Of a stretch of 64,000 nucleotides of DNA, positions 5,102-62,592 are shown piece after piece. The DNA is from an uncultured Helicobacter sp. (GTDB taxonomy: Bacteria > Campylobacterota > Campylobacteria > Campylobacterales > Helicobacteraceae). The stretch spans positions 15,061-79,060 of the forward strand of contig CAYXGY010000005.1 of the NCBI GenBank assembly GCA_964464895.1, read 5' to 3'. Under the pieces are notes generated by a model that was given only the letters and a program-made list of their open reading frames with translations, had not been told where the DNA came from and did no database searches. How positions within the stretch are numbered: the first letter of the stretch is position 1; every line of letters begins with the position of its first letter. Both the position numbers and the translations under genes were made by a program.

Positions 5102-5141
5102 ATCTTTTGATAGTTTAAGCGAGAAAAAGGATATTCAAGCA

Positions 5142-12957: not shown

Positions 12958-13743
12958 TTAAGAAAGGTTTGCAAGTCCCTCTGTGGGAGAACTTGCAGTC
13001 GCATAAGGTTTTTTGGGGATTCTGCCCGCAAGATAGCTTGCGCGTCCTGCACGCACCGCATCACGCATAGCCTGTGCCATAAGAATCGGATTTCTTGCCT
13101 GTGCAATGGCAGTATTCGTAAGCACAGCATCTGCTCCAAGTTCCATTGCAACCGCGGCGTCTGATGCGCAGCCTACACCTGCATCTACAATCACAGGCAC
13201 TTGAATAGCTTCTTTAATGAAACCAATATTGTAGCGATTCTGTATGCCAAGCCCACTACCAATAGGGGCGGCAAGTGGCATTACTGCACTTGCTCCAGCA
13301 TTTTCCAAATGCTTTGCCATAATCGGGTCATCATTGCTATAAGCCAACACACAAAAGCCGTCTTTCGCAAGAATCTCACAAGCCTTGAGCGTTTCTAGCA
13401 CATCAGGATAGAGTGTTTTTTGTGTATCTCCAATGATTTCTAGCTTAATGAAATCAATGCCTGTGGCTTCACGCGTGAGGCGAAAGAGGGTAATAGCTTC
13501 TTGCGCATTCACACAGCCAGCGGAGTTTGGCAAAAATTGAATCTTGCTTCCTTTGAAATAATCTAATAAGTTTTCCTCTTTGGGATTCGTGATATTGACG
13601 CGTCTAATGGCAACGGTGATGATTTCTGCTTCCGAAGCTTTTGTGGCATCAAAAGTTGTTTGAAAGTCTTTGTATTTGCCACTACCCACGATAAGGCGAC
13701 TTTGAAAAGTTTGCTTTCCGATTCTTAAAGGATTGTCATTCAT
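12958..13743 (-). CDS. thiG: thiazole synthase ThiG
   Basis: [20 protein letters not shown] and VDAGVG motifs. Start trimmed to MNDNPLRIG. Confidence 0.9.
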
Positions 13744-13768: not shown

Positions 13769-15214
13769 CTAAATATAGCGGATTTGCTCAATTAAATCAA
13801 GGGGATTAAGCGAAAAGTCATTGCAATTTTTCTTAATCTCTTGTGCGCAAAAGCTATGTAACAAAACGCCCATAATTGCAGAATCTAGTAAAGAATACCT
13901 TTGCGCTAAAAATCCACCAATGATTCCTGCTAGCACATCGCCACTGCCACCTTTGGCTAAAATGTTTGAACCAAAGGGATTGACATAGACTTCTTTGTCT
14001 TTGCAAATAAGCGTATTTGCGCCTTTTAACACCAAAACGATATGAGGATAGGCTCGGCAGAATTCTAAGGCATAAGTGATTCTGTCTTGTTGCAAATCTT
14101 GCGTGGAGAGAGTGGCGATTTTTAATGTTTTTAGAATCTGTGTAAATTCTTTGGGGTGAGGCGTGAGAATGATTTGTTTGTGGTTTGAGAGAATCTCCAA
14201 AAAGGCAGAATGATAGAAAATATCCGCATCAAGCAATAAAGGAATATTTTGCGATAAATGTGAGAGGAAATGCGGTAATGGATTCTTAACCCCTAATCCC
14301 ATACCAAGCAAAATTGCGTTTGCATTGTCGGGAATCTCTCTTGGATTCATTAGGCTAAAGGGTAGATTGGGGATTTTCTCTTGAGAAATGACACTCACAA
14401 GCCCAGCTCCGCTCCTAAGTCCTGCTAGCGCACTTAGAATCCCTGCTCCCGTTTTCCCCCCCGCATAGACGCATAAATGTCCAAAATTTCCCTTGTTGGT
14501 GTTTTGTGTGTTTCTATGAGGTGCTTTGAAATCACTTTTTTCTAATAATTTCAAGGGAGAATTGGGAGCAAAAACCTCCGCACTCACTCCCAAATCTATC
14601 AAATGCACTTCGCCTACAAAGTCTTTTGCCAAATCGCAAAAAAGCGCGCATTTCAATGCCCCCATACTCAAAGTAAAGTCAGCCTTGAAGGCGGTTTTTC
14701 CACCAAGCGCACCAGATTGTGAAATTCCACTTGGAATATCACAGGCGATTTTGATTGCATCAAGTTCGTTTAAAGTCTGCAAAATTTTAGTGGTTTCTAA
14801 GTCTAGCTGTCCTTTAAAGCCTGCACCGAAGATTCCATCAATCACAATATCAAACATTTCTGTTGCCTTTAAGGATTTGAGGAATCTTAAATCTACTTTG
14901 GAATTTGACTTCAATGCCTCTAATCGTTTGAGCTGCATTGTGCATAAGGGACTTTTTGTGTTTTTGGGCAAAAAAAGAGAGACTTCACAGATTCCGCAGA
15001 GCATTCTCGCAAGAGCCAAGCAATCTGCGCCATTATCGCCACTCCCGCATACAAACAATATTTTTAGTTTTTTTGTGGAATCTGTCAAAAAGCGGCTTTT
15101 GATAAAATCACACATTCCGCTTGCGGCATTTTCCATAAGTAATTCTGGGGATAGATAGAAATGCTCTGTCGCATAGTGGTCTAATTCGCGTGTGTTGAAA
15201 AATAGATTTTTCAT
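13769..15214 (-). CDS. nnr: bifunctional NAD(P)H-hydrate repair enzyme Nnr (epimerase + ADP-dependent dehydratase)
   Basis: N-terminal YjeF-N ([10 protein letters not shown]) and C-terminal carbohydrate-kinase domain ([13 protein letters not shown]). Confidence 0.85.
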
Positions 15215-46810: not shown

Positions 46811-47146
46811 ATGGCAAAGTTGCTTTTTGGTTATAGTTTGTATCACGCAAGCACGCAAGATTATGAGGCAATCTTGACGAAGTTGCGGGCAGAGTTTGCT
46901 GTAAATAAGCCAGAACTCTATTTGAATAATCCAGAATATTTACTCTTTACCCCGACAAGTGCGGAGTGGCAAAAAGAAATTGTAACGTTGATTGCAAAAT
47001 TAAAGGCATTTATGAATGCAGAAATAGAATGTTTGCGCAATAATGGAAGTAATGCACATATCGTCTATCGCTTCGGAATCCTAGAAATGGAAAGTGCGTT
47101 TTTTCAATTCCCGCCAGATTTAGACGATGATGAGGAAGAATCTTGA
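46811..47146 (+). CDS. hypothetical protein with an acidic C-terminus
   Basis: 111-aa ORF close behind guaB. I recognise no motif. Confidence 0.45.
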   Translation: MAKLLFGYSLYHASTQDYEAILTKLRAEFAVNKPELYLNNPEYLLFTPTSAEWQKEIVTLIAKLKAFMNAEIECLRNNGSNAHIVYRFGILEMESAFFQFPPDLDDDEEES

Positions 47147-47866
47147 ATTTTTCTGTATGATTCTTTATGGAGTAAATAATCTAAAATTTGCAAGCAATCA
47201 TATTGGTGTGTTTTGCTCAAAAGTCCAAAGATTCTAAATATTTGTATGAAAATTATAATATTTTCTTTGGTTATTTCTAAGTAACCACATTCATTGCTTT
47301 GAATATTTCTGCCAATAAAGCTTTGGTTGTTAGCATCTTTTAGACTGCTTAATGCAATACAGAAATATAGCATTGGCATTGTGCCCACTGCAAATTGCTT
47401 CTCACGCACAATAATTTCACAAAGTAAATCATTATTTTGAAATCTGTGTATCAGTAAAGGATAGCTTACATTTGCTTTTAAAAATTCTATGCCGTTGAGA
47501 TTATCATTCACAAAGTTAGTCCTTGTTATTTTTTCTTTTTGCTCTATAAAATCTTGATAATTTGCTATGCTAGTTTGTAATTCCGCAATATTCTTATGAG
47601 TTATCCATTTTTCATATAATGCAAAATCTAAAAACTCACTCAATTCATAAATTTGTTTTGTTTTTCCATTTGCGCCGATAAAATGATAAATTTCATTTGC
47701 TTACAACCTTGTCATAGCCTATTTGCCATTCAATGTAGTGCTTGGGCGTCATAATGGTTTGTGTCGGTGCGACAGGGATACCATAATCACTAAAGGCAAA
47801 TCTCTCTTTAATCCGAATTTTGCCCATAGCTTTGCTAAGGGGGAAGGAGTATCTTAGGCTATTCAT
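47104..47866 (-). pseudogene. frameshifted ORF translationally coupled to the 47863-48906 methyltransferase; probable inactivated restriction endonuclease
   Basis: The ATG at 47866 overlaps the methyltransferase TGA in an ATGA junction. A 57-aa frame (MNSLRYSF...YDKVVSK) stops at 47693. The 179-aa frame is already open from 47700 (ANEIYHFIGANGKTKQIYE-LSEFLDF...), so a 1-nt shift in 47693-47700 would fuse them into about 250 aa. Confidence 0.35.
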
Positions 47867-48906
47867 ACATATTCCTTAAACAAGGTTTCAAAATATTTTT
47901 GCACGTGCGTATTGGGTGTGGAATCCATAAAGGCATCTGAAATTTTTAGAAATTCCTCGTGATTAATAAAAACATCTAAATTACCAAAGTAATAAGGAAG
48001 CTTGTCGGCGAATTTCTTAAAGTGATGAATGTAATAGTAGTATTGTATGTTATCTTGAAATACGCGAATAGAATTTGCGCTACATTTTGTCATAAAGGTT
48101 TGATTGCGTTTGAGCGCATTAATATCTCGTAAGGTGTGGAAATAAGCGATTTCTTTACGCTCATCTTTCGGGTTTGGATACTTGGCAACATAATTACCAA
48201 TAAAATCAAAATCGTTTAATCGTAGCTTTTGCCCGCTATCTGTGCTAAATTGGTAATTTTTAATAAAATCATAATCCATTCCCTGAGGATTCCTTGCATA
48301 GAGAGCGATAATAATAGGGAAAAAGGTTTTAGAATGGGGCGTAAAAACCTCCGAACTAATGATAAGGCTATCAAGCAGAGCATATTGCTCTTTAAAAAAT
48401 CTTAATGCTTTGAAATTACTCTCCTTAATCAAATATGAGAGTGGGTGAAGCACACAGATAAAATCTGGTTTTAAAAGGGCATAGGAACGCAAAAATGAGA
48501 TTCCTAAATCCCTGTGAGCAAGATTTTCATCTACGTTAAAGAGTTGCTGTTTAATGTTGTTGTTAATAATAGAGGTTTTGTCGTTATAGGGAGGGTTTCC
48601 AATGATAATGAGGTTTTCATTTTCGGGGATTCTAAATTTACGCCGAGAAACACTTAAAAGAGAATTTGTTGCAATTGTGCGGATTTTAGAATTGACTTTT
48701 TGTAAGGCAATCTCATCTATATCTGCACCTAAATAGTGATAATCACCAATGAAAAAATCTCCATAGCCACAAGCATTATCAAAGAGTAAAAAGTCCTTAA
48801 GATTTACTCTTTTTTGTAACAACTCATAGGCTTTTTGGACAATTTTTTTGGGCGTATAAAATGAACCAAGATTAACAGCTTGTTCTTTGGTTAGGTGTTT
48901 TTGCAT
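47863..48906 (-). CDS. N6-adenine DNA methyltransferase, gamma class
   Basis: GSFYTPKKIV (motif X), DNACGYGDFF (motif I) and IIGNPPYN (motif IV). Confidence 0.85.
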   Translation of the reverse strand: MQKHLTKEQAVNLGSFYTPKKIVQKAYELLQKRVNLKDFLLFDNACGYGDFFIGDYHYLGADIDEIALQKVNSKIRTIATNSLLSVSRRKFRIPENENLIIIGNPPYNDKTSIINNNIKQQLFNVDENLAHRDLGISFLRSYALLKPDFICVLHPLSYLIKESNFKALRFFKEQYALLDSLIISSEVFTPHSKTFFPIIIALYARNPQGMDYDFIKNYQFSTDSGQKLRLNDFDFIGNYVAKYPNPKDERKEIAYFHTLRDINALKRNQTFMTKCSANSIRVFQDNIQYYYYIHHFKKFADKLPYYFGNLDVFINHEEFLKISDAFMDSTPNTHVQKYFETLFKEYV

Positions 48907-48925
48907 TCTTCTAATTTCCTAAATT

Positions 48926-49975
48926 TTACAAACTCTCAAAGTCATCTTTTAGATTTTCATAATGTCTATTTTTAATAATGTCTGGTAGTTCCTTTACAGA
49001 GGGAAATTCCTCTGTAATCTCCAAACAAAGTGTTTCAAGTAGCTTATTCCCAAGTAAATTAGCATATTTACCGCGCATTGCTTTTTCATACCAAGCAATC
49101 AAATCAGATTCTGTAATGATGCTTTGAATTTTATTTTTCCAACCTATTTGTGTAAGCAAGGATAAAATGACAGACTTTTCTGCTTCTTTGCACATTATTA
49201 CGATTCTATCGCTATTAAGGTTGGTTACGATATTTTCTGCTAATTCTATGTCTAAACTTAAATGTTTAATCTGTATTGCAATTCCCCAATTTGCATACAT
49301 ATCAAGTCCTCTATCTGCGGCATTGGTTACCCCAACCCTATAAATACGAGCCCTTTGAGTGTGATAAAGATGATTAGTATCAAGGCGCATTATAGACTTA
49401 GTAAAGTCCTCAAATTCTTGTAAAAGCTCTAATTTATCTTGATTGATTGAAAGAGTAACGCTTAATTCTAGACTTTGTGCTAATGTATCAAAAAGAGAAT
49501 GTGTAATAATCTCATAGATTTTATCCAAGCTACGTTTTAATCCAGTTTCACGCCAAAATAGGTTAATAAAATGGGAGATTTCAAAATTTTCTTTATCTAT
49601 ATTCAAGCAATAATTGAGTGCATTATTAAGTTGTGTGTATTTTCTAATAAATTTATTATAGACATAACTTTCAACTGTTCCATTGGATTTTTTATTAAAT
49701 CTGCCTAATTCCGCTATGAATTTAGGCGGAATCGCATTAAATAAATCATCTTGGAATTTTGCTGAACTTGTAGAGATTCTACCAAGTAGCGCAATACAAA
49801 CTTCATCTCTCCAAGATTTACTTTTGGTTCTGTATGTTTCAAGGTCATCTAAATCTATATCGCCAAAAATTCTATCGCGATAAAGAATTTCTGCTATTTG
49901 AATGGGTTTATATAAATGAATTCTTGATTTTGTAATCACTTTGTCTAAAGCATTTTTTGCTTCTCTAATTAACAT
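48926..49975 (-). CDS. Type II restriction endonuclease candidate, partner of the C5 methyltransferase (possibly HaeII-family)
   Basis: 349 aa, overlapping the methyltransferase gene by 11 nt on the same strand. The N-terminal SRIHLYKPIQIAEILY resembles what I recall of HaeII-family enzymes; this is unverified recall. Confidence 0.5.
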   Translation of the reverse strand: MLIREAKNALDKVITKSRIHLYKPIQIAEILYRDRIFGDIDLDDLETYRTKSKSWRDEVCIALLGRISTSSAKFQDDLFNAIPPKFIAELGRFNKKSNGTVESYVYNKFIRKYTQLNNALNYCLNIDKENFEISHFINLFWRETGLKRSLDKIYEIITHSLFDTLAQSLELSVTLSINQDKLELLQEFEDFTKSIMRLDTNHLYHTQRARIYRVGVTNAADRGLDMYANWGIAIQIKHLSLDIELAENIVTNLNSDRIVIMCKEAEKSVILSLLTQIGWKNKIQSIITESDLIAWYEKAMRGKYANLLGNKLLETLCLEITEEFPSVKELPDIIKNRHYENLKDDFESL

Positions 49976-50918
49976 ACTTTTCCTTAAGGCGGTTTTGTAA
50001 TGCTTTTAGCATTTCTCTTGCTACCGCTTCTATTACAGGTATGGCTACACTATTACCTGCTTGTTGTTTGATTTGTGTATAAGAGCTTATAATTTTGTAG
50101 CTTTCTGGAAATCCTTGCAAGCGTAGCATTTCTCGTTCTGTTAGCCTTCTCTCGTTATTTACTAAAAGATAATTTGCTGAAGCACCAGCTCTAAGAGCAC
50201 AAGAAAAATGATGAGGAGTAATAGAACCACCTACATTTTCGTGAGTAATATAAGGTTTAGCAATAGTTTTTTTCATTCGTTTTTGCCTTGATTGCTTAAT
50301 GGAATCTTTCACATAATATTTTTTATCTACATTGGATTCTAAAACATATTCAAGTGTCCTTTTGTGATTTATTGGGAAGGGAAAGACAAAATCAACTTGT
50401 TCTTTAAAGCCACAAATAATAATTCTTTCTCGTTTTTGTGGGAGTCCAAAATCAAGCGCATTTAATACTTTACTATAAACAGAATAGCCTAAAGACTGTA
50501 AATGTGCCAGGATAGTTTTAAAAGTATGTCCTTGATTATGAGCTGTGAGGTTACGTACGTTTTCTAACATAAAAGCTTTGGGTTGTTTATCTTTTAAGAT
50601 TCTTTCAATTTCAAAAAATAGTGTTCCCTGCGTTTCGTGTTTAAAACCCTCTTTGTCTCCTATAATACTAAAAGGTTGGCAAGGAAAACCTGCCAAAAGT
50701 ATGTCAAAGTTTGGAATTTCATTAGAATTAATTTTAGTAATATCTCCTTTGGGGTATTCGCCAAAATTTGCAAAGTAGGTTTTAGCTGCTTCTTTATTCC
50801 ATTCTGATGAAAATACGCAAATTCCACCCACCTTTTCAAATCCTAGCCGAATCCCACCAATTCCAGCAAACAAATCGACAAAGGTAAAATGGTTTTGATT
50901 CTCGTAAATATCTTTCAA
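49965..50918 (-). CDS. DNA (cytosine-5)-methyltransferase
   Basis: Motif I FVDLFAGIGGIRLGF, IV GFPCQPFS, VI MLENVRNL, VIII QKRERIIICG, X AGNSVAIPV. Confidence 0.95.
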   Translation of the reverse strand: MKDIYENQNHFTFVDLFAGIGGIRLGFEKVGGICVFSSEWNKEAAKTYFANFGEYPKGDITKINSNEIPNFDILLAGFPCQPFSIIGDKEGFKHETQGTLFFEIERILKDKQPKAFMLENVRNLTAHNQGHTFKTILAHLQSLGYSVYSKVLNALDFGLPQKRERIIICGFKEQVDFVFPFPINHKRTLEYVLESNVDKKYYVKDSIKQSRQKRMKKTIAKPYITHENVGGSITPHHFSCALRAGASANYLLVNNERRLTEREMLRLQGFPESYKIISSYTQIKQQAGNSVAIPVIEAVAREMLKALQNRLKEKYVN

Positions 50919-50953
50919 TATTTTGCCTTTTTAGTATAATAGCAATTCTATTT

Positions 50954-51817
50954 TTATAATTCCGTTTTCAACACCGCGCCATTTGCCGCGTTGCTTTTAT
51001 CATTTTCGTTCAATATTCCAAATAAGTTATTTTGTTCGATATTAGATTTTTGAAAACTTAATAATTTAAATTCCTCTCTAATTTTCCCTTGATTCTTCAA
51101 TCTATCGAGTATCATTTCATAATAGGGCTTATGCAGCTCGCAGCTAATCCATTGCCGTTTGAGTTGTTCGCATAATATGATTTCGCCCCCGCTGCCACCA
51201 AAAAGAACAAATACAGAATCTCCTTCATTCGTGCAAGATTTAATAAGCATTTCGACAAGTTTAAGCGGAATTTGGCATGAATGAAAAGTCTTATCCTTGC
51301 TCACATTTTTGACCAAATCAAAATAAAACCATGAATAAGGCATTCTACCCTTATGTCCTTCTGCTAATCTTTGCATGATTCTCTTGTCGGTTGGATTTTG
51401 ATAGGGCATTGCGATATTGTCTTTATAGAAATGATTCTCCTTGCTTTTAGTTGCATGCAAAATGCTTCTGTGTGCCGTTGTCAGTCGCCTTTTGCTATGT
51501 CCAACATTTGTATTATAGACCCAAACATAATCTTGCACATCATAGCTTATAGAATCCAAACATTTTACGCGCAAATAGGCATTTTGTTTGGGATAATTCA
51601 TCATAAAAAGGTTTCCGCTAGGCTTGAGCACACGCATTGATTCTGTTGCCAATTCGCAATACCAATCAATATAATCTTCCCATTTTTGCGTGTATTTTGA
51701 GCCATTATAGTCTATGCCAACATTATAATCGGGGTCGCCATAAACCATATCAATGCTAGAATCGGGTAAGCTTTTAAGCACCTTTAAAACATCATCATTG
51801 TAGAGTTTAAATTCCAT
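50954..51817 (-). CDS. beta-class N6-adenine/N4-cytosine DNA methyltransferase (N6_N4_Mtase type)
   Basis: An N-terminal DPPY-variant (VYGDPDYN) precedes the C-terminal SAM motif (VFVLFGGSGGE), giving the IV-then-I order. The last 13 codons lie in the duplicated ilvD tail. Confidence 0.85.
   Translation of the reverse strand: MEFKLYNDDVLKVLKSLPDSSIDMVYGDPDYNVGIDYNGSKYTQKWEDYIDWYCELATESMRVLKPSGNLFMMNYPKQNAYLRVKCLDSISYDVQDYVWVYNTNVGHSKRRLTTAHRSILHATKSKENHFYKDNIAMPYQNPTDKRIMQRLAEGHKGRMPYSWFYFDLVKNVSKDKTFHSCQIPLKLVEMLIKSCTNEGDSVFVLFGGSGGEIILCEQLKRQWISCELHKPYYEMILDRLKNQGKIREEFKLLSFQKSNIEQNNLFGILNENDKSNAANGAVLKTEL
50961..50995. repeat. 35-bp direct repeat, copy A (duplicate of the ilvD 3' end)
   Basis: TCCGTTTTCAACACCGCGCCATTTGCCGCGTTGCT is 34/35 identical to 52621-52655, exactly 1660 bp away. 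Confidence 0.95.
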
Positions 51818-51822
51818 ATTGA

Positions 51823-52599
51823 CTACCTTATCAAGATATATTCACAAGATTTTAAAAATTTTATAGAATCTAAACACAGAGGCTCATTAAAAGTATATGA
51901 CCAAAGCTTTAGGCTATTCCTATTTCTCACAAGATACACACAAATAATTTGCTTAAAATCTAAGCCCGAATTATAATAATAAAGATAAGGGTGGTAAATT
52001 TGATAGATATTAAAGTCTTTTGGTTCTCCATTTTTTGCCTCAAAGATTCCAATAAGCCCTTTATATTCTATTGTCAAATCAATTTCTATTTGTTGATTTT
52101 CGGCATTAATTAAAATGTCTCCAAATTCATACTTTAGAGTTGTTTTTGTGCGATGAGGAAAATAGGTTTTAGGACGATTTTCAATTCCTACATTCTCAAA
52201 CTCTAAATCTTCTCCAAACAAAAAATGGTGTAGGATTCTTTGATTATTTGCAACACTCAAAATATTACTCTCGCTATCATTATATTCATTGAGCAGACTC
52301 TTTTTATATTGCCACCTTATAGAATTTTGCATTTCTTCAAGAGGGTGATAAAGCAATTTTATGCCCTTAATAAATTGATGATAGCCTCCACCCAAATGAA
52401 GCAAACAAATGTCTTGTTCTTTAAAAGAATAGGGTAATTTATCGCTTGAATCTAGCTTTGTTGCATCAAATGGATTTCCAAAGCTATGTTTTTTAGACAA
52501 TTCCTTAACTAAATCATTATGAAATCTAAGCTCATTCTTAGTCCTACAATGATTCCATAAAGCTTCTAATACTAAATGCTTTTTATTGATTTTTGCCAT
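51823..52599 (-). CDS. Type II restriction endonuclease candidate (PD-(D/E)xK-like), partner of the beta-class methyltransferase
   Basis: 258 aa, ending 5 nt upstream of the methyltransferase gene. It has the motif-like string IEIDLTIEYKGLIGIFEAKNG (D...E-A-K). Confidence 0.5.
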   Translation of the reverse strand: MAKINKKHLVLEALWNHCRTKNELRFHNDLVKELSKKHSFGNPFDATKLDSSDKLPYSFKEQDICLLHLGGGYHQFIKGIKLLYHPLEEMQNSIRWQYKKSLLNEYNDSESNILSVANNQRILHHFLFGEDLEFENVGIENRPKTYFPHRTKTTLKYEFGDILINAENQQIEIDLTIEYKGLIGIFEAKNGEPKDFNIYQIYHPYLYYYNSGLDFKQIICVYLVRNRNSLKLWSYTFNEPLCLDSIKFLKSCEYILIR

Positions 52600-52613
52600 T
52601 CCTCACATTCCCC

Positions 52614-54902
52614 TCACACCTCCGTCTTCAACACCGCGCCATTTGCCGCGTTGCTCACAAGCAGCGCATAGCGGCGTAGCCATTTGCTTGGAATCTCCTT
52701 CTTAATCGGCTTCCATTTCGCCCGCCGCGTCTCTAAAACATCGGAATCCACGAGTAGCTCGAGCGTCCCCTTGCTGACTGAAATCGCGATTCTATCGCCG
52801 TCCTCAATCAGCGCAATCAGCCCGCCCTCTGCCGCTTCGGGGCTGACATGCCCAATGCAGCCGCCCCTTGTCGCGCCGCTAAAGCGCCCGTCTGTAATCA
52901 GCGCGACCGACTCGCCAAGCCCCATTCCCATAATCATGCTCGTAGGGCTCAACATTTCCTGCATTCCCGGTCCGCCCTTTGGTCCCTCGTAGCGAATCAC
53001 AACAACATTCCCCGCCTTGACCTTGCCGCCCGCAATGCCCGCAATCGCCTCGTCTTGCGAGTTGAAGCACACCGCGCTGCCCTCAAATTCTTTCATCGAT
53101 TCCGCCACAGCGGCGACCTTGAGCACAGCGCCCTCACGTGCGAGGTTGCCATAGAGAATCTTGAGCCCGCCCACCTGTGAATACGCATTCTCATTATGCC
53201 GAATGATGTTCGTATCCACAATCTCCGCGCTAGCAATGCGTTCGCCCAACGTCTCGCCCGTAATCGTGAGCGCGTCGAGGTAAAGCGTGTGGGGAGTAGA
53301 ATGAAGTTGCAGCACAAAAAAATCGCTAATTTCTTTCGGATAGAGCGACTCATAGCGAATAGGCAGCTGTTCAAAGGCGACTTGTCGGAATCCATGCTCC
53401 GCAAAAAACAAGCGGGTTTGTTCGGTAACCTCAAACATATCAAAAATGAGCTCGCTAAAACCCTCTGTATAGGTTTGAATATAACCTTTGTTTGGACTAT
53501 CTGTAACCAGCATAGTATATTCTGATTCTTTAAGAAATTCAAGCAGTGTTGCATAAAGTCTTTCTTCGAGATGATGAGGAGCAGAGAGATATTGATTTAA
53601 GACAAAGAAACAATTAAGAATCCCAATGCCTTTTTGCGTTTCACAAACACCAATACAACCAACAACTTTATCATTATCAAGCGCAATCCAATATGCTTCT
53701 TTAGAAACATCATGGCTTGCAAGCCTTTGCAGATATGACTCAAAAAAAGGTTTGCGCCACGACTTTTCTTTGCCTACAAATAGCGCAATCGCATCGTCTT
53801 GATAGTGCTGCATTTCTTCTGTAAAACGTACAATGCTTGGCGCATTTTTAGGCAAATCTTGCCATTTTGGCGATTTTGTTTGGGGCATGGTGCGCTTCGC
53901 GACCTCGTTCATCACCGCCGAGACGCCACCTGCGCGGTGAATGTCTTCCATGTGAATGCTACTTAAAGCGGGCGCAATCTTGGCGATATGCGCGACTTGC
54001 GAGGCGATGGCATTAATCGAATCTAGGTTGAAATCCACACCCGCTTCTTTGGCGACTGCGAGCATGTGCAAAATCGTGTTCGTGCTACCGCCCATTGCCA
54101 TATCCACGACAAACGCGTTATGCACGGCTTTGGCGTTGAGGATATTGCGGAATCGGAATTTTTCGCTCAAGGCAGAATCGAGCGCAATTTCCACGATTCT
54201 GCGCGCGGCTTTGCGCAAGAGCTCCTCGCGCTCGGGCGTGAGTGCGAGAATCGTGCCGTTTCCGGGCAGCGCGACACCCATTGCCTCGCAGAGCGTGTTC
54301 ATCGAGTTTGCGGTAAACATTCCGCTACAACTCCCGCCGCTTGGGCAAGATTTGCATTCGATTTCGTGTAGTCTTTTTTCGTCAATCTTGCCATCGCCAA
54401 ACGCGCCGACAGCCTCAAAGGTGGAGTTGAGGTCGAGAATCGTCCCGTCATCGAGCCGCCCCGCGCGCATCGGTCCGCCGCTGACAAAGATTGTCGGCAC
54501 ATTCACACGTAGTGCGCCCATCAGCATTCCCGGCACGATTTTGTCGCAATTGGGCAGGCAAATCATCGCGTCTAGCGCGTGCGCGTTCATCATCGTTTCG
54601 ATACTATCGGCAATCAGCTCGCGGCTTGGCAGCGAATAGAGCATGCCGCTGTGCCCCATCGCGATGCCGTCATCGACGCCAATCGTGTTAAACTCAAACG
54701 GCACGCCGCCCGCCTTGCGAATCTCGTCCTTGACGATTTGCGCGTATTTGTTCAAGAAAAAATGCCCGGGAATGATGTCAATGTAGCTATTTGCCACGCC
54801 GATAAAGGGCTTTTCAAAGTCGCTATCTTGCAACCCTGTAGCGCGCAAGAGGCTTCTATGGGGGGCTTTTTGGTAACCTTTTTTGATGATGTCGCTTCGC
54901 AT
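52614..54902 (-). CDS. ilvD: dihydroxy-acid dehydratase with a large internal in-frame insertion
   Basis: Carries the IlvD/Edd motifs [46 protein letters not shown]. It is 762 aa, against roughly 550-620 for IlvD enzymes I know. The DNA is GC-rich. Confidence 0.9.
52621..52655. repeat. 35-bp direct repeat, copy B (native ilvD 3' end)
   Basis: TCCGTCTTCAACACCGCGCCATTTGCCGCGTTGCT encodes [12 protein letters not shown] of IlvD. Confidence 0.95.
53286..53891 (-). other. AT-rich in-frame insertion module inside ilvD (codons 338-539), GNAT-like
   Basis: The segment [10 protein letters not shown]...LQLHSTPHT interrupts ...VMNEVAKR / [15 protein letters not shown]. It contains [16 protein letters not shown]...GILNCFFV...FAEHGF. 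GC falls from 58-68% to about 33% in hand-counted lines. Confidence 0.7.
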
Positions 54903-54963
54903 AATTTCTCCTTTGTATTAAAGCTGAAATTTTAGCAAATTTTGCGACAAAAATCTTATGAAA

Positions 54964-55514
54964 TTAAGTTTTTGGGCAGGTTAAGTCTAACTCAATCTTG
55001 TGAGAATATTTGATAGAATCGTTGGAAATTGGCTTATAGCTTAAAATTTTTTTAAGGAGTAATGGATCTGCGGCATGTCTTTTTGAGAGTCTTTGAATCC
55101 TCACTTGTTCATCACAAGTAGTATGTATCCAAATATCTGTTTCTTGCAAGTATTTTAGATTTCCAGCAATCAAAATGATAATTTTTACATAGGGAGGGAG
55201 GAATTTAAAGATAAGGCTGTAATTGTTTCTTACAAAATGAGGTGAAAGTCTTATTTTGGGGCGTGCAATAAAAATATTAAGAGAAAGAGTGTTGTCATCA
55301 AGTGTTACGATTTGATAAGGTTTAAAATCGCCAAAACCTTCTTTACGAAGTCTTTTACCTAAAAAACTTTTGCCATTTCCACATCTTCCATCAATTGCGA
55401 TAAGTATATAGTCTCTTTTACTATATTCAGCTTGTTTTAAGAATCTGCTATTCTCTCTCTCTCTCTCTGTATTTCTTCGCAGAGAAATGCTAGATTATTT
55501 TTAAATTCTATCAT
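54964..55514 (-). pseudogene. P-loop nucleoside/nucleotide-kinase-like gene, out of frame at a (CT)8 repeat (phase-variation candidate, OFF as sequenced)
   Basis: The ATG at 55514 (AAGG upstream) reads MIEFKNNLAFLCEEIQRERER then stops at 55437-39. A second frame is open from 55494 to 54964 and encodes ...ILIAIDGRCGNGKSFLGKRL (Walker A) ...DIWIHTTCDEQVRIQRLSKRH. Confidence 0.6.
55453..55468. repeat. (CT)8 dinucleotide simple-sequence repeat, (AG)8 on the coding strand
   Basis: Reads directly as T(CT)8G. It sits 15 codons after the ATG of the kinase-like gene. Confidence 0.95.
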
Positions 55515-55536
55515 TAAACTTACCTTTCTTTTAGAT

Positions 55537-58032
55537 TTAATCTTTGATTCGCATACTATTGCCTACGACAAGCAAGGAGCTAAGCGACATAGAGAGTGCA
55601 GCAATGAGCGGAATCACAAATCCAGCCATTGCAAGCGGAATTGTTAGGGTATTATAGAGCAAAGAAAGAATGAGATTTTGTAAGATGAAACGATAGGTTT
55701 TGCGTCCCAAGCGGAAAGATTCCGAGATTCCTTGTACGTTATCATCAAGCACAACCACATCACTTACGCTAATGGCTAAATCAATTCCTCCACCCATTGC
55801 AATTGCAATGTCGCTTTTACCTAGCGCGATAGAATCGTTAATCCCGTCTCCCGCCATTACGACTACTTTGCCTTGTTGGTGTAGTTTATCAATGAAGTCC
55901 GCTTTATCAACTGGGCTTTGTGCCGCATAATATTCTGTGATTCCAACTGCTTCTGCTACATTGCGACAGACGTGCTCATTATCACCACTCAAGAGAATGC
56001 AGGTAATGCCTTGTGATTGGAGTGTTTGGATTGCCTCTTTTGCATCTTGCTTCAATGTGTCTTGTAGGGTGAATTTTGCGAGAATCTTAGAATCTTTGGC
56101 AAAATAAAATACACTTGCTTGCGTGTCTATTAAGGCAGACGGAATCGTAACTTGGTGTTCTCTTAAAAGGGCTAGATTACCCCCTAAATAGGTATTTTCT
56201 TGCATTTTTGCTACGATTCCACGTGCGTTTATCTGCGTCATTGAATCTAGTGCGATTTCTCTGCCTTTACCGATAAACTCTAGCACGGCTTTGCTTACAG
56301 GGTGAGTGTTTTGTGTGAGCATTGCGCGTAAGATTTCAGATTCCGCAGTTTCTAGTGCGTTTGTAGGTGTGAAATATTGCACTTCAAGCACCTTTAGCTT
56401 ACCCTCTGTTAATGTGCCTGTTTTGTCTAATACTAGGACATTCGCTTTGGCAATGGTCTCTAAAAAACGCGCTTCTTTGAAAAGAATCTTGTGTTTTAAG
56501 GATTCACTAAGCCCAATGAGGGAGGCGATAGGCGTCGCAAGGGCAAGCGCGCAAGGGCAAGCAATGATTATCACAGAAATCATTACCATTAAAGAACGTT
56601 CAAAGGGTGCATTGAGCACATATTCCCAGACTAAAAAGGTGCTAAAGGCTAGGGAGAGAATGACGAACGAGAAATAGCGCGAAATATGATTGGCTGCTTC
56701 TTGAATCTTGGGACGCGCATTGAGGGAATTTTCTACTAATCCTACGATTTTCATCATCAAAGAATCTTTGAAGTCCTTGCTCACTTGATAATTGAAAGGG
56801 TAATTAAGAGCCAAAGAACCAGAATAAATGGAATCTCCTGTTTTTTTGATTCGTGGCAAGGATTCCCCACTCATCGCACTTTCATTGCAGAGTGCTTCTG
56901 TACTCAACAAAATGCCATCTAGCGCAACGCGCTCCCCGGGTCTTACTTGCACAATATCCCCCACGCGCACAGATTCTATTGCGATTTCTTGGAAAGATTC
57001 TTGCGCCTGCGAAGAATAGGCGTCTAAATCATTTTTCGCTTGTGTAGATTGTTGTGTTTGATTGTTTGCTTCTGTCTTTTGTGGAATCTGCAATACGCGT
57101 ACGCTTAGAGGCATTTGCGCATTGAGTTTGTCTAGGCTATCCACTGCGCTTTTTTTGCCGCGCACTTCCAAAAACTTTCCAATCAGCACAAAGGTAATAA
57201 TCATCGCTACCGATTCAAAGTAGGTTTCACCTCCATTAAAACTTGCGTAAATAGAATAAAGATAAGCTAAACTCGCTCCACTAATCACAAGCAAATCCAT
57301 ATTAGGGGTTTTGTATTTGAGTGCAATCCACGCGCCACGCCAAAAAATGATTCCGCTAAAGAACATTACAGGGGTGGAGAGTGCAAACCCTGCGAAGTTT
57401 AAGATATTGCGCATTTCATTTGAGATTCCGCTGAAATATCCTGCATATTGTGCGACAGCAATCCACATAATATTCATCACACAAAAGATTCCAACTACCA
57501 TTTTGATATAATAATCACGTTTTTCTTTTTGGGCATAAGCTTCCTGTAAGCGAGGGTCATAAGCGTGTGCGTTATAGCCAATTTGTCGAATCGTTTGAAT
57601 GATTTGAGAGATTTTTATTTGCTTGGGGTCATAAAGAATCGTGGCTTTGTTGTTGGTATAATTAATATTGACTTTTGTGATTCCGTCGGTCTGGGCGAGG
57701 ATTTTTTCATTTAGCCATACACAGGCAATGCAATGGATTCTTTCTAAAATAAGGGAAATTTCGCACAGGTTGTCTTTAGTATGAACATAACGTTCAAAAA
57801 ATGGCAGAGAATCAAAAGATTCTAAGCTTTCATTTTGCAATGCTTCATTGGCTGGTTCTAATGTATTGTTGCCTAGTTTGCTATAAAAATCCTCTAATCC
57901 TGTGCTATTTAAAAGACTATAAACCCCCTCGCAACCTTTACAGCAAAAATACCTCTCCACCCCTTTTATCGTCGTTTTGATGAGCACCGCTTCATCAAAT
58001 TCTAAATGGCAATGGTCGCAAATATGTTTCAT
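55537..58032 (-). CDS. heavy-metal (copper) translocating P1B-type ATPase, FixI/CcoI-like
   Basis: N-terminal Cys-rich domain (CDHCHLEF...FCCKGCEGVY), HMA-like domain, the CPC motif (ACPCALALATP), DKTGTLT and GDGINDS. A Gln/Asn-rich segment (QKTEANNQTQQSTQAKND) is inserted. Confidence 0.9.
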   Translation of the reverse strand: MKHICDHCHLEFDEAVLIKTTIKGVERYFCCKGCEGVYSLLNSTGLEDFYSKLGNNTLEPANEALQNESLESFDSLPFFERYVHTKDNLCEISLILERIHCIACVWLNEKILAQTDGITKVNINYTNNKATILYDPKQIKISQIIQTIRQIGYNAHAYDPRLQEAYAQKEKRDYYIKMVVGIFCVMNIMWIAVAQYAGYFSGISNEMRNILNFAGFALSTPVMFFSGIIFWRGAWIALKYKTPNMDLLVISGASLAYLYSIYASFNGGETYFESVAMIITFVLIGKFLEVRGKKSAVDSLDKLNAQMPLSVRVLQIPQKTEANNQTQQSTQAKNDLDAYSSQAQESFQEIAIESVRVGDIVQVRPGERVALDGILLSTEALCNESAMSGESLPRIKKTGDSIYSGSLALNYPFNYQVSKDFKDSLMMKIVGLVENSLNARPKIQEAANHISRYFSFVILSLAFSTFLVWEYVLNAPFERSLMVMISVIIIACPCALALATPIASLIGLSESLKHKILFKEARFLETIAKANVLVLDKTGTLTEGKLKVLEVQYFTPTNALETAESEILRAMLTQNTHPVSKAVLEFIGKGREIALDSMTQINARGIVAKMQENTYLGGNLALLREHQVTIPSALIDTQASVFYFAKDSKILAKFTLQDTLKQDAKEAIQTLQSQGITCILLSGDNEHVCRNVAEAVGITEYYAAQSPVDKADFIDKLHQQGKVVVMAGDGINDSIALGKSDIAIAMGGGIDLAISVSDVVVLDDNVQGISESFRLGRKTYRFILQNLILSLLYNTLTIPLAMAGFVIPLIAALSMSLSSLLVVGNSMRIKD

Positions 58033-58043
58033 AGAGGTGATAA

Positions 58044-59255
58044 TTATGCTTCAAATTGCTTTAAGAATTTTTTGAGATTCCTTGCGGCTTGACGAATTCT
58101 ATTTTCATTTTCTATTAGAGCAATACGCACATAATTGTCTCCGTGATTGCCAAATCCAATGCCGGGACTTACTGCGATTTTTGCTTCTTGTAGTAGACGT
58201 TTAGAGAACTCCATACTGCCTAAATGTTTGGTGCATTCTGGAATCTCTGCCCAAATAAACATACTTGCTTTAGGTTTGGTCATTTTCCAGCCCGCCACGC
58301 TAAAGCTTTCAATCAGCACTTCCATACGATGTTCATATTTATGGACGATTTCTTGGACACAAGTTTGGTCTCCATTGAGAGCAATCGTAGAGGCGATTTG
58401 AATCGGAGTATAGAGCCCATAATCTAGCCAACTTTTGATTTTCTGTAATGCGCCGATAAGTTTTTCGTTACCCACCATACAGCCAACCCTCCAACCCGCC
58501 ATATTATAGCTTTTAGAAAGTGTATAGCTTTCCACTGCGACATCTACTGCACCTTCTACTTCAAAAATAGAGGGCGCGACATAGCCTCCAAAGCTTAAAT
58601 CTGCATAGGCAATGTCGTTTAAAATATAAAATCGCTCTTGTTTGGCGAGTTTGACAAGTCTTTCGTAGAATCTCTTATAAACTACTACTGTGGTAGGATT
58701 GTGGGGGAAATTGGTTACAACAAATTTTGGTTTAGGCATTGTGTTTTTGAGAGCTTTTTGCAAGGATTCAAAATAAGCCTCTTCGTCCAATTCGTAGTTT
58801 TCATTCCATTTTAGCCCAAAGGTTGCCACATTTGCGCCTGCTAACATAAAAGCATAATAATGAATCGGATAGGCAGGTTCTGCGACCACTGCAGTATCGC
58901 CCGGATTTGTGATTGCTTGAACTAAATGCACATAGCCCTCTTTAGAACCCATAGAAACGCAAACTTGCGTGTCTGGATTGAGAGAGATTCCGTATTTGCG
59001 CTGATAAGTATCCGCAATCGCAAGACGCAGTTTATAGATTCCTTTACTCGCGGAATAGCCGTGATTTTTGGGTTTATGTGCCGCTTCGCAGAGTTTATCA
59101 ATGATATGGTCTGGGGTTGCGCCATCAGGATTTCCCATACTAAAATCAATCACATCTTCGCCCTCTTGGCGCATTTTTAATTTGATTTCATTAATGGCGG
59201 CGAAAACATACTTTGGTAATCTTTTGATTTTTTCAAATTCAATTTCTTCAAACAT
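58044..59255 (-). CDS. PLP-dependent class I/II aminotransferase (AspB/AlaC-like)
   Basis: FSMGNPDG, NFPHNPT and the PLP-lysine region (SKSYNMAGWRVG). Confidence 0.85.
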   Translation of the reverse strand: MFEEIEFEKIKRLPKYVFAAINEIKLKMRQEGEDVIDFSMGNPDGATPDHIIDKLCEAAHKPKNHGYSASKGIYKLRLAIADTYQRKYGISLNPDTQVCVSMGSKEGYVHLVQAITNPGDTAVVAEPAYPIHYYAFMLAGANVATFGLKWNENYELDEEAYFESLQKALKNTMPKPKFVVTNFPHNPTTVVVYKRFYERLVKLAKQERFYILNDIAYADLSFGGYVAPSIFEVEGAVDVAVESYTLSKSYNMAGWRVGCMVGNEKLIGALQKIKSWLDYGLYTPIQIASTIALNGDQTCVQEIVHKYEHRMEVLIESFSVAGWKMTKPKASMFIWAEIPECTKHLGSMEFSKRLLQEAKIAVSPGIGFGNHGDNYVRIALIENENRIRQAARNLKKFLKQFEA

Positions 59256-59274
59256 TTTTTCTCCTCGTTTGGAT

Positions 59275-60126
59275 TTATTTTAGCATAACATCTAAGCCAT
59301 TTTTGGTTGTAATGGGTAAATAAGTGTCGGTGATTTTCACAAACATTGCTCCCTTTGGAATCTCTTTTTGAATGGTTTGTGAAGATTTTTGACTGCTTAT
59401 GATTTCTAAAATATTTAGATTTTTATCAAAAAATATCAATTTGGGATACCATAAGATTCCATTGCTTGACTTGACTTCTAGGCGACTACCTTGCTCAATT
59501 TGATACCAATACTCGCCCTTTAAATTTGCTTTGTGATTCGTTTCGTTAGCTGTCAATTTGGTGGCTTTTGGATATTGAAATGTGCTATTGGTAATCGTGT
59601 AATTCCATTGATGAATACTGCTTCGTTCAATGCTCTGCACTCTATAACCATAGTTGTATAATTTTTCTTGTAGAAGCGTTGGGTCAATTGCATATTCCGT
59701 ATTCATAGAAAGAATAAATTTAAATTTTTGCTCCTCTAGCAAACTTTCTTTGAGCAAAAAATAATAATATCCCATTTCATTTAATATATGATAAAGCACG
59801 CTCGTAAAAGTTGCTGGATTTTCGCTTATACTGAAAGATACTTCAAGCTCCATTGGTTGCTTGAAAGTTAGTTTTAAAAGCCCATTTTGTTTGAGAGTAT
59901 TAGAGATTTTATATAAATCTGGTTGTCCCGCATCATCTAAAAAATATCCTTGATTGTTAAAAAGCCGTTGGATAAACTTTTGATTCGTCTTGTATTCTTG
60001 CACGCCCAAGAGTTGCATTACCTTGTAATCAATCGGATTTTGCATTGCAGGAGTTTGCGCATAAAGCTGAATTGCAAGTAAATCAAAAAGAATCGCAAGG
60101 AGAAACCATTGGGGAATTTTTACCAC
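59275..60126 (-). CDS. secreted/periplasmic protein of unknown function
   Basis: 283 aa with an N-terminal signal-like segment (WFLLAILFDLLAIQLYAQ). Confidence 0.45.
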   Translation of the reverse strand: MVKIPQWFLLAILFDLLAIQLYAQTPAMQNPIDYKVMQLLGVQEYKTNQKFIQRLFNNQGYFLDDAGQPDLYKISNTLKQNGLLKLTFKQPMELEVSFSISENPATFTSVLYHILNEMGYYYFLLKESLLEEQKFKFILSMNTEYAIDPTLLQEKLYNYGYRVQSIERSSIHQWNYTITNSTFQYPKATKLTANETNHKANLKGEYWYQIEQGSRLEVKSSNGILWYPKLIFFDKNLNILEIISSQKSSQTIQKEIPKGAMFVKITDTYLPITTKNGLDVMLK

Positions 60127-61052
60127 CCTAATCCCCTCGTGTATTGGTTGTATTGGGCGAGTGTGATTTCGCTAAAATTTCCCGCTTCATCTACCATAAA
60201 AAGCATTTTTTCTGCTTTATTATAGTTGGTAAGTTCGCCATCTAGATTTAAATCTAGCATTCCGTGTCCTGTAACAATGGTTTGCGGACGCGTTAAATCA
60301 ATCTCGACAGAAGTATTTGTAAGGAGCGAATTTTTTTTCCGTGTATCCAAATAAACGATTCCAATCCAAACATTGGAACGTGGGATAATTTCTAGCTTGC
60401 GCACTGCGGTGGCTTTGATTGGTTCTGCTGGTGTGGTTTGCTCAGGACTTTGTTCTGTATTGGTTGTCTGTGGCAATTCATTAATAGGAGCAGAAGCAGA
60501 TGCGTCTAAAGAATGATTCATTGGTAATGGTTCGGTATGGGCAGGCGTGTCGTTTATCGTATTGGTTGTCGCGTTATTTTCTGCCTCGCTTGTGTTTTCA
60601 ATCTGGCTTTCTGTTGCGTTTTGAGCGACTAGGGATTCTGTTTGCGCTGATTTTTGAGCAGTGGAATCTTTGGCTGGAGTAAGGTTGGTGAAATTGGTAT
60701 AAACATAGAATCCAACCCCCAATAAAATAATTGCAATTGCACCCAAAATAGTATATTGTTTGGAATTATTTTGTTTCGTCATTTCGTGTGTAATCTTGTA
60801 ATTAATGACGGCTTCTAAGTCTTCTGTTTTTTGTTTGTGGTTGTTACAAAATTCATTGTATTCTTCTTGCCACTTTTGCAAATCTACATTATACTCTCGC
60901 TCTAAAATTTTGATTAGCCCGATTGTAGTTGTGCGGTCGTGTAATTCTTCAAAGTTAGAATCCAAGATGAATTGGATTTTGTTTAATGCCATATGTGTAT
61001 GCTTGGAGATTTCTTTCGCCCCAATTTTTTTTAATTTTTCAATATCTTCCAT
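60120..61052 (-). CDS. RodZ-like protein (N-terminal HTH, one TM, low-complexity linker, C-terminal beta domain)
   Basis: Architecture only: an HTH-like N-terminus, a TM (TILGAIAIILLGVGFYVY) and a Thr/Asn/Glu/Gln-rich linker. Confidence 0.45.
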   Translation of the reverse strand: MEDIEKLKKIGAKEISKHTHMALNKIQFILDSNFEELHDRTTTIGLIKILEREYNVDLQKWQEEYNEFCNNHKQKTEDLEAVINYKITHEMTKQNNSKQYTILGAIAIILLGVGFYVYTNFTNLTPAKDSTAQKSAQTESLVAQNATESQIENTSEAENNATTNTINDTPAHTEPLPMNHSLDASASAPINELPQTTNTEQSPEQTTPAEPIKATAVRKLEIIPRSNVWIGIVYLDTRKKNSLLTNTSVEIDLTRPQTIVTGHGMLDLNLDGELTNYNKAEKMLFMVDEAGNFSEITLAQYNQYTRGLGW

Positions 61053-61725
61053 TGATTATCCTATCTATTAAAATTGCCCCCGCTGTGCTCACATTGAGAG
61101 AATCAAATTCTCTTTTTTGTGGAATGGTTAAATTTGTGTCCATTTTTTTTAAGATTTTATGACTTAAACCCTCCATTTCGTTGCCCAAAAATAACGCTTT
61201 TCTACCCTTTGGTATTTGCGTTAGATTCACACCCTTTGGACTTGTTCCATAAAGAGTAAAATGAGCCAATTTAAGCTCATTGGCAACATCTAGCGCATTA
61301 TGTACCACCGCAAAGGGCATATCTAGCATTGCGCCTGCGCTTGTGCGCAACGCCCCTTCTTGCTTCAATTCCTTTAAGCCGCAAATGACGATTCCATCTA
61401 CCCCAAGCACATAACTACTGCGAAAGAGTGCCCCAAGATTCCCTACATCATTAATGCCACACAGCACAAGCACAAAAGACATCGTTTTAATTGCGTTAAA
61501 CTCCAATGGCTCAAGAGGGGAAATCTCCAGCAAATAGCCCTGATGATTGCCTCCTTTTGCTAAGGCTTGTGCCTTTTTGGAATCTATACGCAATAGAGGA
61601 ACATTAAGCTTTGCAAAAGCATTAAATTGCTTTTTATCAATCTCTTTTGCAAGGTAAATGGTTTGTATTTTTTCGCGATGTTTTAAAAGAACAAGTTCAG
61701 CAATGCGCTTCCCATAAACAATCAT
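61039..61725 (-). CDS. TrmH/SpoU-family RNA 2'-O-methyltransferase (RlmB-like)
   Basis: SpoU motifs: NDVGNLGALFRS, LFLGNEMEGLS, SLNVSTAGAI. Confidence 0.8.
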   Translation of the reverse strand: MIVYGKRIAELVLLKHREKIQTIYLAKEIDKKQFNAFAKLNVPLLRIDSKKAQALAKGGNHQGYLLEISPLEPLEFNAIKTMSFVLVLCGINDVGNLGALFRSSYVLGVDGIVICGLKELKQEGALRTSAGAMLDMPFAVVHNALDVANELKLAHFTLYGTSPKGVNLTQIPKGRKALFLGNEMEGLSHKILKKMDTNLTIPQKREFDSLNVSTAGAILIDRIINGRY

Positions 61726-61758
61726 TGATTTTATCCTATTTTTTCTTAAAATTTTTGT

Positions 61759-62592
61759 TTATTTTGTCAATTGTGCATAATATTCACTTGCATTTCCGCC
61801 TTTTAATTTTGCCAAAATTTTTGCTTTAATTTTGGGCGGAATCTCTAAGTTGAGTAGCATTTCTTGTGTTAGCACTTTTTCTTCTAGATTTTGGGGTGTT
61901 TTTTCAAGGACAATCACCCATTCACCCTTGAGAAACGCAGAATCTCGGGCGTAATTTTGCAAAAAGGATTCTTTGATTTGCATTAGTGTGCCCTTGAAAG
62001 TTTGTTGGTATTTTTTGGTGAGCTCTTTTGCCAAAAATACTTCACGTTTGGAATCAATTTGTGTCATTAATTCTAAAGTCTCTAATAATCTATGTGGAGA
62101 TTCGTAAAAAACAATAGGATAAAGACTTTTAAAGGCTTGTTGCAAAGATTGCAAACGCTCTTTTACCTTGTGTGGTAAGAATCCCAAGAAACTAAACTCT
62201 TTCTCTATGATTCCACTAAAGGCAACTGCTAGAGTTACCGCACTGATTCCTCCTAAAACTTCATAAGGCAGGTGATGAGATTGCAAAAATCTCACAAGTT
62301 CTACTCCGGGGTCGCTAATGCAAGGCATTCCTGCATCACTTAGAAAACCAATGTTTTGGTTAAAGAAATCTAATGTCATCTGACTTAAAAACTGGGATTG
62401 GTTATGCGTATGAAAAGCGAAATATTGATAGTCTTTAGCAGGTAAAAGTCCGCGTTCCATTAGTAGTGTAATGAGCTTTTTGCTTATTCTTGTGTCCTCG
62501 CACAAAAGCACTTCGCATTGCTTCAAAGCCTCTAATGTACGTAATGTAATGTCTTGTAGGTTACCAATTGGAGTTGGTAGGAAAGTAACCAT
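61759..62592 (-). CDS. rsmI: 16S rRNA (cytidine1402-2'-O)-methyltransferase
   Basis: TPIGNLQDITLRTLEAL and CEDTR at the N-terminus, and SDAGMPCISDPG. Confidence 0.9.
   Translation of the reverse strand: MVTFLPTPIGNLQDITLRTLEALKQCEVLLCEDTRISKKLITLLMERGLLPAKDYQYFAFHTHNQSQFLSQMTLDFFNQNIGFLSDAGMPCISDPGVELVRFLQSHHLPYEVLGGISAVTLAVAFSGIIEKEFSFLGFLPHKVKERLQSLQQAFKSLYPIVFYESPHRLLETLELMTQIDSKREVFLAKELTKKYQQTFKGTLMQIKESFLQNYARDSAFLKGEWVIVLEKTPQNLEEKVLTQEMLLNLEIPPKIKAKILAKLKGGNASEYYAQLTK

Follow-up and report, generated by a model that had tools for sequence, protein, structure and literature searches.

Insertion with long target duplication is a known mode of movement of restriction–modification (RM) systems, a class defined by Furuta, Abe and Kobayashi 2010 (PMC2853133). 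As set out in that study, the restriction (R) and modification (M) genes lie inside an insert of less than 20 kb, the flanking repeat exceeds 30 bp, no other mobile element is present and an empty site exists in another genome. Start or stop codons often lie within the repeats, so that the target gene stays intact, and in one described case the insertion generated a methyltransferase fusion (Fig. 9d of that paper); the authors state that the mechanism is unknown, and the same paper presents the Kobayashi group's hypothesis of a 'virus-like life cycle'. Here, we analyzed a stretch of 64,000 nt (64 kb; hereafter the window) from an uncultured Helicobacter sp. (contig CAYXGY010000005.1), in which a compact RM cassette follows ilvD, the gene for dihydroxy-acid dehydratase, and is bracketed by two copies of the ilvD 3′ end. 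Judged from its sequence, the locus is a new example of this known mode of RM mobility, in a non-pylori enterohepatic Helicobacter. Its added interest lies in the recurrence of such duplications at one gene end and in the two-allele structure of the repeat; otherwise, it represents ordinary RM turnover in Helicobacter. We propose, with a probability of about 0.6, that the cassette brought a donor ilvD terminus along and entered through a homologous left and an illegitimate right junction, and not by simple in-situ duplication of the target.

An RM unit between two copies of the ilvD 3′ end

All the genes concerned (ilvD, the restriction gene and the methyltransferase gene) are on the minus strand, on which the features below are read. 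The target gene ilvD (52614..54902, 762 aa) is intact. As is usual, one residue follows the conserved ...KTE; it varies between L, M, I and V in 120 IlvD proteins listed by homology search. The 3′ end of ilvD contains copy B (52621..52655) of a 35-nt direct repeat, TCCGT(T/C)TTCAACACCGCGCCATTTGCCGCGTTGCT, made of codons of the functional ilvD (plus E). Copy A (50961..50995), identical at 34 of the 35 positions, forms the 3′ end of the methyltransferase open reading frame (ORF). The copies are spaced by 1660 nt from start to start, and the segment inserted between them (50996..52620) measures 1625 nt. Each copy continues into a diverged tail. Tail B, together with the junction to the cassette (52600..52620), reads G GTG TGA GGGG and then AATGTGAGGA; it provides the E-V-stop terminus of ilvD, and a Shine-Dalgarno-like GAGGA lies within this junction directly 5′ of the ATG of the restriction gene. 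Tail A (50952..50960), A TTA TAA AA, is a second ilvD-type terminus, E-L-stop, which gives the methyltransferase its last codon and its stop. The repeat thus extends to about 44 nt if the ilvD-type tails are included, with perfect identity over 29 nt.

In the 64-kb window, a search allowing up to three mismatches returned these two matches and no others, with 0 expected from 100 shuffles. The repeat aligns with the conserved C-terminus ([LMIV]* as last residue) of more than 100 Helicobacter IlvD proteins, and on this alignment both copies derive from the ilvD 3′ end. A dispersed element was ruled out, given that only two copies are present in the window and both align to the ilvD terminus. The same arrangement, including the same G/A mismatch, was recovered from at least 10 sequencing runs, in contigs assembled independently of one another, which rules out an assembly artefact. 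The GC content is about 31–38% in the cassette and 52–61% in the 3′ part of ilvD. A sequence-only reading of the window had already located the repeat with this identity and spacing, derived it from ilvD, noted the GC contrast and placed the R and M genes precisely between the copies; direct search, alignment to the IlvD termini and the family matches given below bear out each of these statements, and the possibility that it had raised against itself, a dispersed repeat foreign to ilvD, did not materialize in the window.

The restriction and methyltransferase genes lie exactly between the copies and form a compact predicted type II RM unit of about 1.6 kb. The restriction gene (51823..52599) encodes a 258-aa protein matching DUF6996 and DUF6997 as well as the PADLOC model REase_II (E=5e-12), and several of its homologues are labelled 'type II restriction enzyme' in NCBI or UniRef. 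A sequence search of the PDB with this protein was uninformative, its sole match (E=0.0011) being an unrelated homeobox protein. The methyltransferase gene (50954..51817) encodes a 287-aa beta-class N6/N4 DNA methyltransferase that matches PF01555 over residues 22–236 (E=6e-34) and PADLOC MTase_II (E=8e-114) and resembles solved enzymes such as M.RsrI and M.MboIIA. The gaps from ilvD to the restriction gene, to the methyltransferase gene and to the next gene are 14, 5 and 35 nt, respectively, and no terminator-like site was found between any of them; for these reasons, both cassette genes probably share a transcript with ilvD.

The methyltransferase has an unusual end. Its 287 residues exceed by 12–25 the 262–275 aa of 13 homologues, the aligned members of its 90% identity cluster (H. 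aurati, H. bilis, H. ganmani, Helicobacter sp. MIT 11-5569 and others). Their tails stop 0–5 residues past a common 'LF', where the window protein goes on with GILNENDK and 14 ilvD-type residues (274–287). At the DNA level, the cassette is homologous to its counterparts in other Helicobacter genomes between 52600 and about 51015. In comparisons between genomes, the homology of the cassette stops at the methyltransferase stop codon. Since the homologues are shorter and the cassette homology ends at this stop codon, the end of the gene comes from ilvD-derived DNA. The sequence-only reading had proposed 13 borrowed codons plus the stop; the borrowing from the ilvD duplicate stands, and the count is refined to 14 codons, with the stop codon 4 nt past the 35-mer, in the further ilvD-like tail (GA|A TTA TAA). 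The motif TGATAAA, which ends the gene in H. ganmani, also occurs in the window cassette, out of frame; loss of the stop by a 1-nt frameshift relative to H. ganmani was considered and left as a possibility, the C-terminal tails being too variable to establish it. Read-through in the other two frames would end after 8 or about 20 codons, so that the in-frame entry into ilvD codons is a one-in-three accident. Because of this chance, the variability of the tail among homologues and its position past the PF01555 match, which ends at residue 236, the extension is probably neutral rather than an adaptation. The locus also illustrates that a gene, once inserted, can end up without a stop of its own and gain host-derived codons at no obvious cost.

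Four of the five features that define the published class are found here: the R and M genes inside, an insert of 1625 nt, a repeat of more than 30 bp (35 nt at 34/35) and no mobility gene. The class itself, to which the sequence-only reading had assigned the locus with reference to Kobayashi and colleagues, exists as defined in PMC2853133. The likeness extends to the R and M genes standing alone between direct repeats taken from the target, to an insert that is AT-rich relative to its surroundings, to the Helicobacter host and to the location of the repeat at a gene end, so that the target gene stays intact; a gene fusion made by insertion has its precedent in the case cited above. The locus departs from the class in that its repeat of 35 nt (29 perfect) is at the short end of the 45–423 bp in the tables of that study, in that the two copies carry different ilvD-terminus alleles and no empty-site genome was found, and in that, in two other lineages, unrelated cassettes at the same gene end show comparable duplications. 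Unlike the published fusion, the present one merely adds 14 residues to a variable methyltransferase tail.

The locus can also be compared with other known elements. In integrase-mediated islands with att duplication at the end of a gene or tRNA, the direct repeat likewise stems from the target 3′ end, and insertion restores the target gene; however, no integrase, recombinase or transposase domain was detected in the ORFs of the 8-kb RM region (in 47104–54902, every ORF with a family match is an RM gene or ilvD) and, unlike a fixed att core, the repeats differ in length and end points between lineages, as described below. A transposon-like RM unit would carry terminal inverted repeats at its ends, and none pairing the regions around 50996 and 52620 were found.

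Mobility of the cassette and recurrence at the ilvD 3′ end

The same R–M pair was found in at least seven contexts, the window included: after purB and after Mua in H. bilis-type contigs, after asd in pig-gut contigs, after a 1380-aa gene in H. ganmani, behind a D12 methyltransferase in H. aurati, and after ilvD both in Helicobacter sp. MIT 11-5569 and in the window. The order of the co-oriented genes, restriction then methyltransferase, is kept in all of the contexts examined (7/7). Compared across these genomes, the cassette is evidently mobile. No flanking repeats longer than 12 nt were found in the six other contexts, and we therefore rejected the idea that flanking repeats are a general property of the cassette. 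The sequence-only reading had named related genomes with the cassette but not the distal repeat as an observation that would refute it, and formally six contexts are of this kind; because these are independent insertions in other species, they leave the reading standing.

The closest named relative of the restriction protein is that of MIT 11-5569 (86%), the other genome in which the pair follows ilvD. At that site, a DpnII-family endonuclease has left a 57-aa remnant between ilvD and the R–M pair (L095, 1895–2068), which suggests that an earlier RM system occupied the site. A short ORF after the MIT 11-5569 methyltransferase was considered as a remnant of the C5 methyltransferase present in the window and was dropped, as it showed no significant similarity.

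The ilvD 3′ flank is itself a preferred location of RM genes, since five different RM gene sets were found directly after ilvD in relatives. In Helicobacter sp. GCA_014799995.1 (L110/L111), which shares about 90% DNA identity with the window and synteny on both sides, ilvD is followed by an N6_N4 methyltransferase and an HNH nuclease; in L108/L109 by an MmeI-like enzyme; in L113 by two D12 methyltransferases around a 200-aa gene; and in MIT 11-5569 by the DpnII remnant, the R–M pair and McrBC. H. saguini has an ilvD flank without RM genes. The contigs L108 and L113 are conspecific, with flanks 97% identical and different cassettes after ilvD, a case of allelic substitution of cassettes. Differing RM sets between conserved flanks are also what is described for RM allelic substitution at a fixed locus (PMC2853133; E. 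coli hsd). Flanking homology alone, however, leaves no duplicated target, whereas the window, L110 and L108 all keep ilvD fragments at their cassette borders.

These fragments show that duplication of the ilvD end has recurred. In L110/L112, the segment from −101 to −4 of ilvD is copied downstream of its own unrelated cassette with 89.8% identity (aligned extent about −125 to +3), and in L108/L109 the segment from −180 to −43 is copied after the MmeI-like unit with 92.9% identity (12346–12485 in L108). Both the L110 and the L108 fragments hold frameshifting indels and are therefore decaying scars. In total, the duplication is seen in three lineages, around three unrelated cassettes and with three lengths (35, about 100–125 and 140 nt). 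In L108, the final gene of the MmeI-like cassette (274 aa) terminates at a TAG within the first bases of the ilvD duplicate (12346–12348), a second case of a stop borrowed in this way. The right end of the L108 fragment (ilvD −43) and the left end of the window repeat (−41; 50995/50996) lie at most 2 nt apart although the lineages are independent; this near-coincidence may be due to chance or to a preferred break point at CTTGTG|AGC.

Two ilvD termini and a proposed route of insertion

The repeat of the window is a mosaic. Copies A and B show 0 mismatches over their first 29 nt and 8 over the following 16, through the stop codon and four further nt (Fisher p=6e-5). Each tail is still a correct ilvD ending of conserved length: B encodes E-V-stop and A encodes E-L-stop. 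Tail B (GAG GTG TGA GGGG) differs from MIT 11-5569 at 1 position of 16, the four non-coding G after the stop included, and the 10 nt before the ATG of the restriction gene also resemble the sequence before the MIT 11-5569 restriction gene. Tail A (GAA TTA TAA AA) is closest to H. saguini, with 3 mismatches in 16. The first 29 nt of both copies share an AAC state that is not seen in the other clade members sampled (L110, L108 and L113). The two copies therefore look like different ilvD-terminus alleles, for which a homology-anchored import would be a better fit than duplication of one template. In the conspecific pair L108 and L113, the ilvD terminus differs according to the cassette that follows, which fits the idea that a cassette moves jointly with the ilvD terminus beside it.

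We thus suggest the following route. The source would be a cassette already located beside an ilvD terminus, as it is today in MIT 11-5569, and entry would have occurred by recombination with the conserved 3′ end of ilvD as its anchor, so that the RM unit was inserted into the last 41 nt of ilvD, with ilvD left intact and a second copy of its terminus distal to the cassette. The left junction would be a homologous crossover within the last ~12–40 nt of ilvD, importing the donor terminus GAG GTG TGA GGGG, and the right junction an illegitimate join of the methyltransferase end (...AAT GAT AAA) to ilvD −41 (AGC AAC...). Owing to a join at this point, the last 41 nt and the stop of the recipient gene (…GAA TTA TAA) would survive downstream and the methyltransferase, having no in-frame stop of its own, would read through 14 ilvD codons to the old ilvD stop.

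Helicobacter is naturally competent. Homology-facilitated illegitimate recombination during natural transformation is said to have been described by de Vries and Wackernagel and by Prudhomme et al., both in 2002, and the reported events are said usually to delete recipient DNA, not to duplicate it. The window would share with this process the anchor in the ilvD 3′ end, the illegitimate far junction, the lack of mobility genes and the competent host genus. It differs in that no microhomology is evident at the joint of the methyltransferase with ilvD −41 and in that a duplication is observed instead of a deletion.

By extension, the ilvD 3′ end could be a recurrent homology-anchored landing pad at which enterohepatic Helicobacter exchange unrelated RM cassettes, the duplications being the overlap left by a homologous left and an illegitimate right join rather than the product of a staggered cut; this generalization is tentative, and we lean against it. 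Three independent events at one gene end and a proximal cassette border with a recognizable, presumed donor terminus make the homology-anchored hypothesis testable by transformation.

Several points weigh against import anchored in the ilvD terminus. The assignment of donor and recipient copies rests on about 16 nt of tail. To account for the shared AAC state, one has to assume a very close donor, a crossover located within the repeat, or conversion. On a single duplex, a right junction upstream of the left one cannot arise from a linear fragment; it would call for a staggered break, a circular intermediate or a sister copy. Given the absence of flanking repeats in the six other contexts, the duplication is not intrinsic to the cassette. 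Moreover, the search for an empty site was negative: look-ups with the exact protein sequences of the methyltransferase, of IlvD and of the C5 methyltransferase returned the same arrangement only, and the cassette is present in all 11 contigs with this ilvD (11/11). Lastly, the same tails could result from in-situ duplication followed by a short import, or by a partial gene conversion, that replaced one of them.

In its full form, this last alternative supposes that a staggered break of ~35–45 nt, perhaps the result of restriction attack, opened in the 3′ end of ilvD and was filled in around an incoming RM fragment; one template would then have given both copies, and tail B would be the own end of the cassette or a later short import. 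It explains well the 29 identical nt and the AAC state present in both copies and not in L110, L108 or L113. It is also the reading adopted for the published cases, in which repeats often span the stop codon, and the three lengths seen in three lineages are as variable as in that class. On the other hand, tail B is a correct ilvD terminus that matches MIT 11-5569 through four non-coding nt, which would be improbable for the end of an unrelated cassette, and a split of 0/29 versus 8/16 is incompatible with uniform divergence (p=6e-5). In-situ duplication, which we consider unlikely, predicts that no donor-like genome exists with the cassette preceded by GGTGTGAGGGG within ilvD and without signs of a staggered break.

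Integration of the Campbell type, the 'virus-like life cycle' hypothesis stated in PMC2853133, would start from an RM unit that, in a related strain, was flanked by ilvD repeats and excised as a circle with one repeat, a single crossover in the ilvD 3′ end regenerating the two copies. This has the merit that one crossover within the 29-nt identical stretch yields the observed mosaic, with the donor tail in B and the recipient tail in A, and that no mobility gene is required. Nevertheless, we rate it as improbable: a substrate of 29–35 nt is very short, the joint of the methyltransferase with ilvD −41 still presupposes an earlier event, and none of the contigs, which come from at least 10 runs, showed a circular or excised junction. 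Finally, it is very improbable that copy A is an older scar, left by an ancestral distal ilvD fragment that was trimmed to 44 nt after its cassette had been swapped by allelic substitution, as seen between L108 and L113, and whose first 29–35 nt were homogenized by gene conversion: L110 does have such a distal fragment of ilvD at the equivalent position, immediately before a shared N6 methyltransferase/PabI-like pair, and its distal tail ends like that of the window in ...TA TAA AA, but copy A is nearer to copy B (0/29) than to the L110 distal copy (3/29), so that a conversion event must be added, and a C5/HaeII pair separates copy A from the N6 methyltransferase gene, implying at least one further event.

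The search for an empty site covered further collections. The 90% protein cluster of this ilvD has a single member, the 35-mer had no match in a scan of metagenome contigs, and a scan of a genome collection gave no conspecific genome among the matches listed. Of the empty site with one copy of the 35-mer that the sequence-only reading had expected in strains or species without the cassette, the only evidence is a single ilvD end in the relatives H. saguini and L113, and these look-ups and scans gave no conspecific example; the syntenic sister L110 has a different cassette with its own duplication. The excised or circular form for which the same reading had advised a search was likewise not seen in the available assemblies. 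Repeat-mediated excision is plausible, and it would leave the junction CTGCTTGTGAGCAACGCGGCAAATGGCGCGGTGTTGAA[A/G]ACGGAATTATAAAAATAGAATTGC at the emptied site and, in the circle, the junction AATGATAAA-35mer-GGTGTGAGGGGAATGTGAGGAATGGC, which joins the methyltransferase end, the repeat, tail B and the restriction gene.

The neighbouring RM pairs and the ilvD gene

Two more RM pairs lie beyond the cassette, both on the minus strand. The second pair (48926..50918), immediately downstream of the cassette, combines a C5 cytosine methyltransferase (49965–50918) with a HaeII-family endonuclease (48926–49975), and the third (47104..48906) an N6 methyltransferase (47863–48906) with an R.PabI-family endonuclease (47104–47643). 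The C5/HaeII pair is missing from the syntenic sister genome L110, in which the N6 methyltransferase/PabI pair is conserved directly after the distal ilvD fragment, this fragment being only 19 nt from the shared N6 methyltransferase gene. The motif TAAAA occurs at both borders of the segment holding the C5/HaeII pair in the window (48926–50951); a 5-nt duplication around this pair was set aside, as it is too short to judge in AT-rich DNA.

The ilvD gene has features of its own. An in-frame AT-rich insert of ~200 aa (53287–53890, minus strand, ~aa 338–538; 35–40% GC) lies between the N- and C-terminal domains and gives a weak match to GNAT acetyltransferases (PF00583, E=0.004). It is absent from the closest IlvD relatives (564 aa, 95–97% identical), and a similar insert is found in four IlvD proteins of 766–768 aa with ~80% identity, of which three have recorded GNAT hits. 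Outside the insert (52614–53286 and 53891–54902), the GC content of ilvD is ~50–61%, mostly 52–61%, above that of the neighbouring core genes (~40–45%) and of the RM genes (~31–36%). Despite this enrichment, the window IlvD is ~90% identical to other Helicobacter IlvD proteins. There was no sign of a mosaic gene or an imported block, the identity to L110 and L108 being uniform across the 5′ and 3′ parts.

The surroundings of ilvD were compared between the window (46811–62000) and L110, L108 and L012. In H. saguini and in L108, L113 and L114, ilvD comes after a 183-aa gene (with a YceI Pfam match in L108 and L114), whereas copA and an RM pair flank it in the window and in L110. In view of these different neighbourhoods, ilvD, possibly with its RM flank, was relocated in the lineage of the window and L110. 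The spacer between copA and ilvD contains a 69-aa ORF in the window (54964–55173, minus strand) and a 166-aa ORF with a faint AAA_18 match in L111; between the window and L110, it is conserved only in a 53-nt stretch and in the last ~43 nt before the ilvD start. In H. saguini (L012), a 16-nt palindrome, TAGAATCTAGATTCTA, starts at the ilvD stop codon and has at least three more copies within 3 kb (positions 11741–11756, 13277–13292, 14802–14817 and 14872–14887).

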